DNA of 41,607 nt from Candidatus Woesearchaeota archaeon. Lineage in GTDB: Archaea > Nanobdellota > Nanobdellia > Pacearchaeales > GW2011-AR1. The DNA lies in assembly GCA_964421685.1 (NCBI GenBank), contig CAYQXU010000001.1, positions 1-41,607 of the forward strand, given 5' to 3'. Made by a program: the position numbers and the translations under genes. The notes beneath the pieces were generated by a model, which searched no databases, had not been told where the DNA came from, and saw nothing but the letters and a program-made list of their open reading frames with translations. Below, one piece after another: positions 3,017 through 28,097 of the stretch (position 1 is its first letter; each line of letters begins with the position of its first letter).

Positions 3017-3023
3017 TGTAAAA

Positions 3024-3120
3024 ACCTACGGTTTTTTGCTCGAGCCAACACTTACTTTTGGATTATCTCGTGTAAACTCTCGTCCCTCAAACAACTTCTT
3101 TTCATTGCCTTCGAGAGAAG
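3024..3120 (-). promoter_or_regulatory. Conserved leader element, copy 1 (upstream of rps8e)
   Basis: The 45-nt core GCTCGAGCCAACACTTACTTTTGGATTATCTCGTGTAAACTCTCG at 3038-3082 is identical to 25648-25692 and differs by 1 nt from 27394-27438. It lies 21 nt from the rps8e ATG and downstream (on the minus strand) of an A/T box, TTTAAATA, at about 3147-3154. Confidence 0.55.
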
Positions 3121-25197: not shown

Positions 25198-25367
25198 TGG
25201 CTTTGAGGAGAATTTAACTCCCGACCTCGGCCTCTCTCAGCAAGATGTTTTTTAGTGTGTTTATTATTAAACTCCATACACTGAAATTTTCTTTTAGAAA
25301 ATTTCGTGAATGTGCTTGATTTCATCAAGCCCATGAGAGCCGCGCTCTGACACTGAGCTACAAAGCC
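25198..25367 (-). tRNA. tRNA-Met/Ile2 (anticodon CAT) with a 98-nt intron at position 37/38
   Basis: Manual fold: acceptor GGCTTTG/CAAAGCC plus A73, D arm GCTC-AGTGTCA-GAGC, anticodon stem CGGCT/GGCCG, loop CTCATG|intron|A, variable loop AGGTC, T arm GGGAG-TTAAATT-CTCCT. BHB: central helix CUCA/UGAG flanked by 3-nt bulges UG|G and AG|A. Confidence 0.85.
25234..25331 (-). other. tRNA intron (98 nt)
   Basis: Delimited by the BHB geometry. Contains perfect hairpins GCTTGAT-GAA-ATCAAGC and GAAATTTTCT-AAA-AGAAAATTTC. UGAUGA lies near the 5' end and CUGA near the 3' end. Confidence 0.75.
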
Positions 25368-25647: not shown

Positions 25648-25712
25648 GCTCGAGCCAACACTTACTTTTGGATTATCTCGTGTAAACTCTCGTTGCCTCC
25701 GAAGAAACTCGG
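25648..25712 (-). promoter_or_regulatory. Conserved leader element, copy 2 (upstream of rps17e)
   Basis: The core at 25648-25692 is identical to 3038-3082 and lies 49 nt from the rps17e ATG. It is followed by TTGCCTCCGAAGAAACTCGG, which relates to the TTGCCTCCGAGAGAAG tail of copy 3. Confidence 0.55.
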
Positions 25713-26801: not shown

Positions 26802-27320
26802 TTATGGCCTAATCCATGCTACTTCATAGTAAGAAACATCTCCCTCTTCATCTACAATTGCAAGAAGGAGGTTCTTTTTTGTGCTGTGGGCAACTCTGTT
26901 TTTTGCTGAGAATTCGTGCCATGAGAATTTCTTTGATTCGTGCTCGCAGAAAACAATCCATTTTGCATGCTCATTTCCTGGTTTTGAACCTTTATTATAA
27001 ACTCTAAAATCAGCCCCGAATTTTAATGCTGTTTTAACTATATACCCTTTTTCTCTTAAATTTTTGAAAACTAAATATTTTATTTGAATTCTCTGGTCAA
27101 GTTTTTCAAGTTTTTTCAAGATTTCCTTTTTTGAAATTTTTTCACTTTTAGAAACTAGATCCATTTTGTCTTTTTCTACTAAGTAAAGTGTTTCTGTTAA
27201 GGTATATTGGATTTTTTCCCCAAGTGACTCCCCAAAAGAGCTTTTTTCATGCAATGAGAATGCCTCGTTAGAGTTGCTTGAAACAATATGCCCTGAAAGG
27301 TTTGATTGTATTTTTTCCAT
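26802..27320 (-). CDS. endA: tRNA-splicing endonuclease (homotetramer-type size)
   Basis: 172 aa. YLVFKNLREKGYIVKTALKFGADFRVYNKG...EHAKWIV...RVAHSTKKNLLLAIVDEEGDVSYYEVAWIRP closely follows the EndA catalytic domain pattern. Confidence 0.88.
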   Translation of the reverse strand: MEKIQSNLSGHIVSSNSNEAFSLHEKSSFGESLGEKIQYTLTETLYLVEKDKMDLVSKSEKISKKEILKKLEKLDQRIQIKYLVFKNLREKGYIVKTALKFGADFRVYNKGSKPGNEHAKWIVFCEHESKKFSWHEFSAKNRVAHSTKKNLLLAIVDEEGDVSYYEVAWIRP

Positions 27321-27393
27321 TTTTAAAACAACCTAACGGTTTTTTTAGATTTTCCCTTAAGTTAGACTCAAGGCTGATAACCTGCGGTTTTTT

Positions 27394-27520
27394 GCTCGAG
27401 CCAACACTTACTTTTGGATTATCTCGTGTAAGCTCTCGTCCCTCAAACAACTTCTTTTTTTCTCAAGCCCACACTCAATTTGGACTATGTCGTGTAAACT
27501 CTCGTTGCCTCCGAGAGAAG
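27394..27520 (-). promoter_or_regulatory. Conserved leader element, copies 3a and 3b (tandem, upstream of endA)
   Basis: The core at 27394-27438 has 1 mismatch to the others. A diverged second core (TCTCAAGCCCACACTCAATTTGGACTATGTCGTGTAAACTCTCG) lies at 27461-27504, followed by TTGCCTCCGAGAGAAG. The element is 73 nt from the endA ATG. Confidence 0.55.
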
Positions 27521-27611
27521 TTTATTTCCCGTGTTATAAACAATTTATTGGAATATTTAAATTTGTGGTTTCATTGGAAATATTTATTAACATGCCTTTG
27601 CTTTTTACACT

Positions 27612-28097
27612 ATGCCGAAAAATAAACCCCTCCGTGAAAATAAGGTGGTTACACGTGCTATCCAAGAAGGAATTAGAGAAATCACTAAAAGAGATAAGGC
27701 AGCTTCTCCTGAAAGACTTTTAAAAGATATAGATTCTAGCAGGTTAAATGATGTAATTGTTGATGCTTATCGCTTTATTGGGACAAGATCTAATGATTAT
27801 TCTGGCAGAAGAGGAGATGTGTATCTTTATAATGCTGTTGAAAGGGCTGTGGCTTCAGGGAGTGTTTTTTATGCAAGTTCAAGAAAAGGGTCGTTAGATG
27901 AACGCTCTAAGATAATGAGAATTGCTGCCTTTATTTTTGCAGCCTTGGGAGTTTTATTTGTTGCCTTTTTTGGAATAAATATCAACGGTGACGCAGTTTC
28001 TAGTGAAATATCAGCTAGAGGGAATTTATTTGGCATTGGTTTTGGCATTTTTTTATTAATTTTGAGTTTCATGGCCTTTTCGAGTTATAAAAAATAA
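27612..28097 (+). CDS. Hypothetical membrane protein
   Basis: 161 aa. Soluble N-terminal half and two C-terminal TM helices (IAAFIFAALGVLFVAFFG, LFGIGFGIFLLILSFMAF). Confidence 0.5.
   Translation: MPKNKPLRENKVVTRAIQEGIREITKRDKAASPERLLKDIDSSRLNDVIVDAYRFIGTRSNDYSGRRGDVYLYNAVERAVASGSVFYASSRKGSLDERSKIMRIAAFIFAALGVLFVAFFGININGDAVSSEISARGNLFGIGFGIFLLILSFMAFSSYKK

Follow-up and report, generated by a model that had tools for sequence, protein, structure and literature searches.

Two similar hairpin sequences stand side by side on the minus strand in front of endA, which encodes a tRNA-splicing endonuclease of 172 aa (26802..27320, minus strand; an open reading frame with homologues that carry PF01974 and PF02778 and are named tRNA-intron lyase). 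They lie in the 291-nt spacer between endA and a divergent gene at 27612, and their position raises a simple question: do they belong to endA, as a local duplication that serves the endonuclease, or is each of them one copy of something that occurs elsewhere? We addressed this in a stretch of 41,607 nucleotides (the window), in the remainder of the Woesearchaeota genome from which it comes (G000), and in related genomes and metagenomes. The reading that we favour, with a probability of roughly 0.7, is that the two hairpins are independent copies of a ~44-nt hairpin module, the core, and that they occupy slots of a dispersed, modular leader cassette situated between the endA promoter and the start codon.

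Read along the minus strand, the spacer has a clear anatomy. A TATA-like box (AAATTTAAATATT, 27553..27562) marks the endA promoter; the box and the sequence that follows it are kept at the orthologous endA locus L212, and transcription would start ~28 nt downstream, near 27531-27535. The 5' arm of a first stem, stem A (AACUUCU, 27516..27522), pairs with 27449-27455 and is present in the minimum-energy fold of the module. It is followed by the conserved loop CUCGGAGGCAA (27505..27515), which contains an SD-like GGAGG. Slot I opens directly 3' of this loop and holds the distal core, 3b (CGAGAGUUUACACGACAUAGUCCAAAUUGAGUGUGGGCUUGAG, 27462..27504; covariance model score 69.4 bits, E 3e-18; fold -10.3 kcal/mol). 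After an A-run linker at 27456-27461 comes the 3' arm of stem A (AGAAGUU, 27449..27455) and then the conserved GUUUGAGGGA (27439..27448), which is common to the rps8e leader and is found in many leaders as GCUUGAGGGAUC. Slot II begins directly 3' of it and contains the proximal core, 3a (CGAGAGCUUACACGAGAUAAUCCAAAAGUAAGUGUUGGCUCGAG, 27395..27438; 79.7 bits, E 2e-21; fold -11.2 kcal/mol, z -2.45). A first SD-type module, CAAAAAACCGCAGGUU (27379..27394), has no start codon after it, and similarity to the rps8e leader stops here. The remainder is a second, partial leader unit, comprising an R-type hairpin region (CCUUGAGUCUAACUUAAGGGAAAAUC, 27347..27378), which is folded in the minimum-energy structure and matches the ...CCGNNNNNNAGGGAAAAUCGAAAAAAACC... 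module of other leaders, and an SD hairpin (AAAAAAACCGUUAGGUUGUUUU) that is followed by AAAA-AUG (27321..27346; SD-like AGGU at 27331-27334; fold -5.5 kcal/mol, z -2.4). Folds of whole leaders are modestly more stable than those of shuffled sequences (z about -1.5 to -1.7). Much of this agrees with an earlier note on the same DNA, made from the sequence alone. The two cores upstream of endA are where it had placed them, separated by 23 nt (27439-27461) and not by the 22 nt it had given, and the loop strings that it quoted, the retained CGAGAG, UUUACAC and GUGU and the G-U-compatible CUUGAG are all present. Its assumption that 3a and 3b are homologous is borne out by the covariance model of the family, which both copies match with E values of about 1e-18 to 1e-21, far beyond chance.

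The family to which the two copies demonstrably belong is not confined to this locus. A profile search found 17 cores in the assembly (927 kb in 89 contigs, 33% G+C), an 86%-complete MAG without the 3' end of its 16S gene, and 16 of these are in sense orientation just upstream of a start codon or a tRNA. Besides the endA pair, two of these copies lie in the window on the minus strand, one in slot II of the rps8e leader (3039..3082), where slot I is empty, and one in slot I of the rps17e leader (25649..25692). At least 15 unrelated genes, plus one tRNA, have a core in front of them; the products behind cores include S8e, S17e, EndA, L37Ae, S24e, a proteasome subunit, RNase J, a DRG-type GTPase, form III RuBisCO, Mre11, a CBS protein, a signal-peptide peptidase, a DUF4234 membrane protein, an unknown protein and an intron-containing tRNA. 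At this tRNA (G000 C3:30637-30800, corresponding to locus L009 1628-1720) a full cassette, with stem A, core, GAACCUUUAGAAAAGGUUC hairpin and SD-like module, stands directly upstream, where an SD is of no use.

Outside this genome, a search with an exact-stem pattern returned 20 loci from GTDB species genomes whose titles name Woesearchaeota, Pacearchaeota or Nanoarchaeota, and at least 80 loci from metagenomes, a sample that is biased towards exact stems by its selection. Thirteen other genomes carry between 1 and 18 copies each. The core was absent from all 36 other genera of the same family and from all 24 genomes of the same order that were searched, two weak matches apart; the weak match in the relative G035 falls within a coding region, on the other strand. 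Among 80 distinct copies with long flanks, intergenic copies lie sense-only upstream of an open reading frame in 34 cases and antisense-only in 8, and 7 of the 80 are inside reading frames (six sense, one antisense). Across genomes the core is kept at the orthologous genes rps8e, rps17e, mre11, L44e and RuBisCO. Rfam 15 gave no match on the cores, either in the window at gathering thresholds, in 27300-27620 at E values up to 10, or at four other loci, and we found no description of the core element in the literature.

What unites these copies is a fold. Column counts describe the ~44-nt core as a 10-bp helix closed at both ends by a near-invariant GA facing GA and a C-G pair, with two near-invariant U.G wobbles in the middle, such that each strand reads CGAG-N8-CGAG. 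The loop varies in length from 15 to about 45 nt. For covariation analysis, 60 copies were taken by coordinate from five core-bearing genomes, without selection for exact stems, and 61 distinct sequences were aligned. Across these 61 copies, from nine other genomes, 98.8% of the helix cells are paired, and compensatory changes, 94 cells in all, occur at 7 of the 10 pairs. The alignment scores 0.483 for covariation, compared with 0.156 after column shuffling and at most 0.076 when partners are slid by 1-3 columns; it was fitted to the covariance model and so favours pairing, but the slide control and the count of double changes are clear. The consistent consensus fold that the earlier note had named as a check on its proposal is supported, and, as it had supposed, the differences in 3b preserve the structure, both in the single-sequence folds of the two copies and in the covariation of the family.

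These data also bear on whether the core is read as DNA. A palindromic operator for a dimeric transcription factor, acting as a roadblock downstream of the transcription start, would account for the dyad symmetry with its four CGAG tetramers and for a position just downstream of promoters. Yet the arms are kept complementary by compensatory changes even within one genome, and the asymmetries have a sense of strand: UUU opposite GGG and G.A opposite G.A are wobble and sheared pairs on one strand and A.C mismatches on the other. Such asymmetries, on the gene-sense strand only, are expected of a single-stranded fold, of RNA or ssDNA, and not of identical half-sites in a duplex; moreover, a loop of 15 to about 45 nt would shift the half-sites apart. 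We regard the operator as very improbable.

Several known RNA motifs were considered for the same fold. A kink-turn or L7Ae site was rejected, as each G.A motif forms a symmetric 2x2 internal loop that C-G pairs close, with no 3-nt bulge; the sheared geometry of these tandem pairs is itself assumed from their CGAG/CGAG context. Box C/D RNA was rejected for want of UGAUGA or CUGA and of any Rfam C/D match at E values up to 10, and a tRNA-like or split-tRNA origin because ARAGORN and Rfam found only ordinary tRNAs. Since its non-canonical pairs are invariant, the core is probably recognised by a factor, which might move DNA or act on RNA. The loops bear signatures that differ from genome to genome, a pattern that indicates spread or homogenisation of copies within genomes.

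The cores sit in a larger and equally recurrent scaffold. From 5' to 3', the cassette opens with stem A, looped by GGAGGCAA; slot I and the returning strand of stem A come next, then UUGAGGGA and slot II, and last a small hairpin with an SD-like AGGU, which the ATG follows a few nucleotides on. Slot I is located right after GGAGGCAA and slot II right after (GC)UUGAGGGA(UC). Searching for the 3' module AAAACC-GYA-GGUUUU, a few nucleotides and an ATG, we found at least 28 leaders in the genome that end in an SD module directly before the start codon, about half of which have no core. In the core-less leaders GGAGGCAA is the plain loop of the stem A hairpin. Stem A takes several forms, all of them complementary (AACUUCU/AGAAGUU, GCGAUUUY/RAAAUCGC, GUGGCAUC/GAUGCCAC and GACUUUC/GAAAGUU), with compensatory changes at 6 of 8 pairs across the family; it was judged by pair counting, since many copies carry an identical stem sequence and partner swapping is then uninformative. 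The GGAGGC between stem A and core is invariant in 26 aligned modules. The earlier note had seen the SD-like GGAGG in the loop of a CUCUCG/CGAGAG hairpin. The motif does stand between these strings, and when the 3b module is folded as a single sequence, stem A encloses a hairpin of this kind with 4 bp (CUCG/CGAG), but the structure conserved throughout the family is a different one, in which GGAGGCAA is the loop, or the 5' side of an internal loop, of the covarying enclosing stem A.

The scaffold pattern occurs in 5 of 37 genera of the same family, this genome included, with low copy number in the four others. A set of paralogous genes whose products start MVYK(R/K)YI(Y/K)R.GKK.GPYYYH (C9:3565, C13:7544, C21:7541) each has a core-less scaffold leader. 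In the SD modules (27330-27339, 27379-27389, 3023-3033 and all others), AACCGUAGG equals the 5' strand of helix 45 of the E. coli 16S rRNA, and the variant AACCGCAGGUU complements exactly the conserved AACCUGCGGUU immediately 5' of the anti-SD; either likeness may be due to chance.

With the two slots defined, the origin of the endA pair can be read from orthologous leaders. The rps8e leader of this genome is the endA unit minus the 3b segment, with common flanks, as the earlier note had described and as the alignments bear out; its slot I is empty and its slot II filled. In the close relative L090, where the rps8e promoter is the same and the protein starts are near-identical, the arrangement is reversed, with slot I filled and slot II empty. 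At the endA loci L212 and L213 (EndA 83% identical), both slots are empty, as against 3b in slot I and 3a in slot II here. These orthologous leaders have the same TATA box and downstream sequence (ATTTAAATATT...TTTATAACGCGGAAAATA) and the same scaffold, AAACUUCC-CUCAGAGGCAAUUAA-AGGAAGUU-GCUUGAGGGA-GGU-AAAACCGUAGGUCUUUAAC-AUG. Slots are thus filled and emptied independently of each other. By this comparison, the endA leader of the window is a scaffold of the L212 type plus 3b in slot I, 3a in slot II and the second partial unit (27321-27378), and it is this partial unit that appears to supply the working SD of endA. At any single slot, insertion and precise deletion would account for the alignments equally well.

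The identities among cores tell the same story. Core 3b is 82% identical to its neighbour 3a and 91% identical to cores on contigs C80 and C3, while 3a matches the cores of rps8e and rps17e at 98% identity. A local tandem duplication, which the earlier note had proposed, is not supported in view of these closer relatives elsewhere and of the independent filling of slots at orthologous loci, and the sequence comparisons indicate that 3a and 3b are two independent core copies in two different standard slots.

The second half of that proposal, that the element precedes endA because the leader is processed by EndA or feeds back on it, was suggested by the placement of two homologous hairpins immediately upstream of the gene. 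It could draw further on an intron-containing tRNA 2 kb away and on a relaxed bulge-helix-bulge (BHB) pairing, UUC.UCUC.gga.GG / UU.GAGG.gac.GAG, which can be drawn in both the endA and the rps8e leaders. The tRNA (25198-25367, minus strand; Rfam 45.6 bits, missed by ARAGORN) has an intron of ~98 nt, and served as a positive control: our scan for a pair of 3-nt bulges, one on each strand, with a 4-bp helix between them and a helix on either side, recovered its true CUCA/UGAG splice-site BHB (GCU.CUCA.ugg.GC / GC.UGAG.aga.GGC). In the endA, rps8e and rps17e leaders the relaxed scan returned 3, 2 and 1 matches, against 2.2, 0.7 and 1.1 in shuffles, and none at a core. The drawable pairing is within shuffle expectation and absent from other copies of the element, and is common to the endA and rps8e leaders because these are 98% identical there. 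The core does resemble the archaeal BHB substrates of EndA (tRNA, rRNA and mRNA introns) in having a pseudo-two-fold symmetric helix with two symmetric irregularities, and it adjoins endA here, but its irregularities are 2x2 G.A internal loops 10 bp apart and not 3-nt bulges 4 bp apart.

Nor does the element show any specific tie to endA. In the core-bearing genomes, 10 endA orthologues were inspected and none is preceded by a core; the same element precedes the many unrelated genes listed above. Apart from the 83%-identical orthologue, eleven endA orthologues taken with their upstream DNA are without a core, and those that were read through are leaderless or short-leadered. With no BHB above chance and no conserved linkage (at the closest orthologues the scaffold is empty or the intergenic region is 92 nt long), an EndA/BHB substrate was rejected, and a local duplication whose placement reflects EndA-dependent processing or autoregulation is scarcely credible as an account of the locus.

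Throughout the genome, TATA-like hexamers peak at -30..-26 from first ATGs (294 versus a background of about 30 per 5-nt bin), and SD-like motifs precede only 10% of open reading frames, which together make leaderless initiation the rule and scaffold leaders the exception. Leaders built on the scaffold have their nearest TATA-like box 34-102 nt before GGAGGCA and never closer than 34 nt, so that the start would fall at stem A or a few nucleotides before it; co-transcription of the leader, cores included, with the downstream gene is likely on this spacing. Comparison of loci such as L212 shows the cassette to be positioned downstream of conserved TATA boxes. At five more distant endA orthologues, the TTTAAATAT box ends about 22 nt before the ATG, a leaderless arrangement, and orthologues that are 87% identical have 92 nt of intergenic DNA and a leader of about 13 nt. 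At another endA locus, L204 (G066:C3), about 90 nt of a different, G-rich sequence (...CCUGUCGGCAAAGCCGACUUGAGCGGGUGGGCGGGAAAG...) lie between TATA box and ATG and may represent a leader insertion of another type in this position.

The behaviour of core and cassette is best explained, in our analysis, as that of a dispersed repeat akin to the REP, BOX, Correia and RPE elements, to which they are unrelated in sequence. Each comparison captures a part. Like the REP sequences and BIMEs of gamma-proteobacteria with their RAYT (Y1) transposases, the cores are short imperfect palindromes (35-45 nt), many per genome, with a conserved tetranucleotide at the foot of the hairpin, and they often occur side by side in composite arrays, are probably transcribed with their neighbours and fold on one strand. 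They differ in having an archaeal host, in occupying 5' leaders where REP sequences follow genes, and in a hairpin foot that reads CGAG, with tandem G.A pairs, in place of GTAG; no Y1 gene flanked by cores was found. BOX elements of Streptococcus pneumoniae and Correia elements of Neisseria share with the cassette a modular build, in which an outer scaffold encloses inner hairpins in varying number, and a location between promoters and genes, with co-transcription (here inferred). Their stable RNA structures alter expression of the downstream gene, as those of the cassette may; processing of the RNase III type is not known for the cassette, which, unlike them, brings a ribosome-binding site to otherwise leaderless genes. 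The palindromic elements of Rickettsia (RPEs) are also found in frame within coding genes, where they add a peptide segment, although most cores are in leaders and not in coding sequence. One core does answer to this description, lying in a conserved coding gene with the frame intact: at C32:6415-6475 (locus L016 1496-1556) it is in frame in a 559-aa fusion of a SET domain and an MnmA-like tRNA thiolase, is translated as GRVVSRDNPKASGATS, adding ~20 residues, and falls in a linker of ~75 aa between a PRC-barrel (ending at 421) and a C-terminal barrel (starting at 497). Its flanks are G-rich (GGGUGGG...UUGGGGUGGGG). Set against the classical criteria for MITEs, the core arms are inverted repeats, but with conserved mismatches.

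The means of spread are less apparent. Filled and empty slots, when compared, display no visible target-site duplication, and we found no transposase or other mobilising enzyme, and no autonomous partner, for the cores. Matches to Y1 transposases (PF01797) occur in 9 of the 14 genomes with cores and in 16 of the 60 without (p = 0.012), a weak association; G066 carries 18 cores and has no Y1 match, the Y1 genes of G000 have no core in their flanks, and the only adjacency of a Y1 gene and a core is in G068:C7. A RAYT-like Y1 partner is doubtful, given this weak association and a search that found no Y1 gene flanked by cores.

Two side observations concern neighbouring elements. In G000, the region C64:1031-2835 (locus L214) contains an RT-16 RNA motif (RF03019, 97.9 bits) followed by reverse-transcriptase reading frames, a Y1-transposase-like reading frame and a long hairpin with a GC-GA-GCC/GGC-GA-GC tandem G.A loop, which was not recognised as a group II intron domain; in G068:C7 the same arrangement of Y1-like frame and hairpin has a core copy 25 nt later. 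Separately, a subfamily of cores with G-rich flanks adjoins the 3' end of a tRNA on the opposite strand (loci L132, L072, L053 and L128, on metagenome and MAG contigs). Its flanks (AGCGGGGG / core / UGGGAUUUG...) repeat the 3'-terminal sequence of the tRNA, two or three times in a row in L053, and could represent an att-site remnant or a targeting preference.

Not every feature of the family speaks of a repeat. The core might instead be a domesticated cis-regulatory RNA, with a pseudo-symmetric helix that is bound by a dimeric RNA-binding protein or other trans factor and co-regulates genes of information processing, so that what looks like repetitive spread would be the assembly of a regulon. 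Retention at orthologous genes in several genomes and the invariance of the non-Watson-Crick positions, G.A/A.G and U.G, while helix positions covary, are as compatible with selection for an RNA function as with selfish spread; the invariant loop motif and the strong sense-orientation bias lean the same way, and genome-specific loop signatures would suit co-evolution with a partner. Against this stand the heterogeneity of the gene set, which extends to a tRNA and membrane proteins of unknown function, the gain and loss of cores at orthologous leaders, the scaffold leaders that do without a core, the copies within coding sequences and the lack of the element in most genera of the same family, and no candidate protein was found. 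We judge a domesticated regulatory RNA to be unlikely, with a real chance of being right.

Returning to independent cores in a dispersed cassette, we are able to propose how the endA locus may have reached its present form. Cores and cassette would spread as non-autonomous DNA, and the cassette would lodge between the promoter and the ATG of leaderless genes. There it would be tolerated on account of its 3' module, whose weak hairpin (-5.5 kcal/mol) supplies an SD. The endA gene, leaderless or short-leadered in other lineages, would here carry a structured leader of ~210 nt in its transcript and use the SD of the cassette for translation. In the transcript the hairpins may act as leader structure, whether as a 5'-proximal stabiliser, by partial masking of the SD, or as a site for a factor that reads the invariant G.A and U.G features. 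A bolder version of this model, which we offer tentatively as a possibility with the balance against it, holds that the cassette is a mobile, selfish "translation-initiation adaptor" that has switched dozens of genes from leaderless to SD-led initiation, surviving only between the promoter and the ATG of leaderless genes because it carries its own SD hairpin, and that the core is the recognition site of a factor specific to DPANN archaea, whether a single-strand transposase or an RNA-binding protein that acts as a dimer.

The new evidence at this locus consists of the endA orthologue with empty slots and the two-slot model, and its implications extend beyond endA. The tiny genomes of DPANN archaea are regarded as streamlined, and here about 3% of genes have a repeated, structured leader of 70-210 nt that would put SD-led initiation in place of leaderless initiation. 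For annotation, such leaders explain long "empty" intergenic regions, the spurious reading frames that cross them and odd in-frame protein inserts. With its invariant tandem G.A and U.G pairs, and with its conservation in groundwater and sediment MAGs of Woese-, Pace- and Nanoarchaeota, the core is a defined bait for new factors that bind RNA or ssDNA. A cassette that proved mobile would be a natural case in which repeat DNA changes, one gene after another, how translation is initiated.
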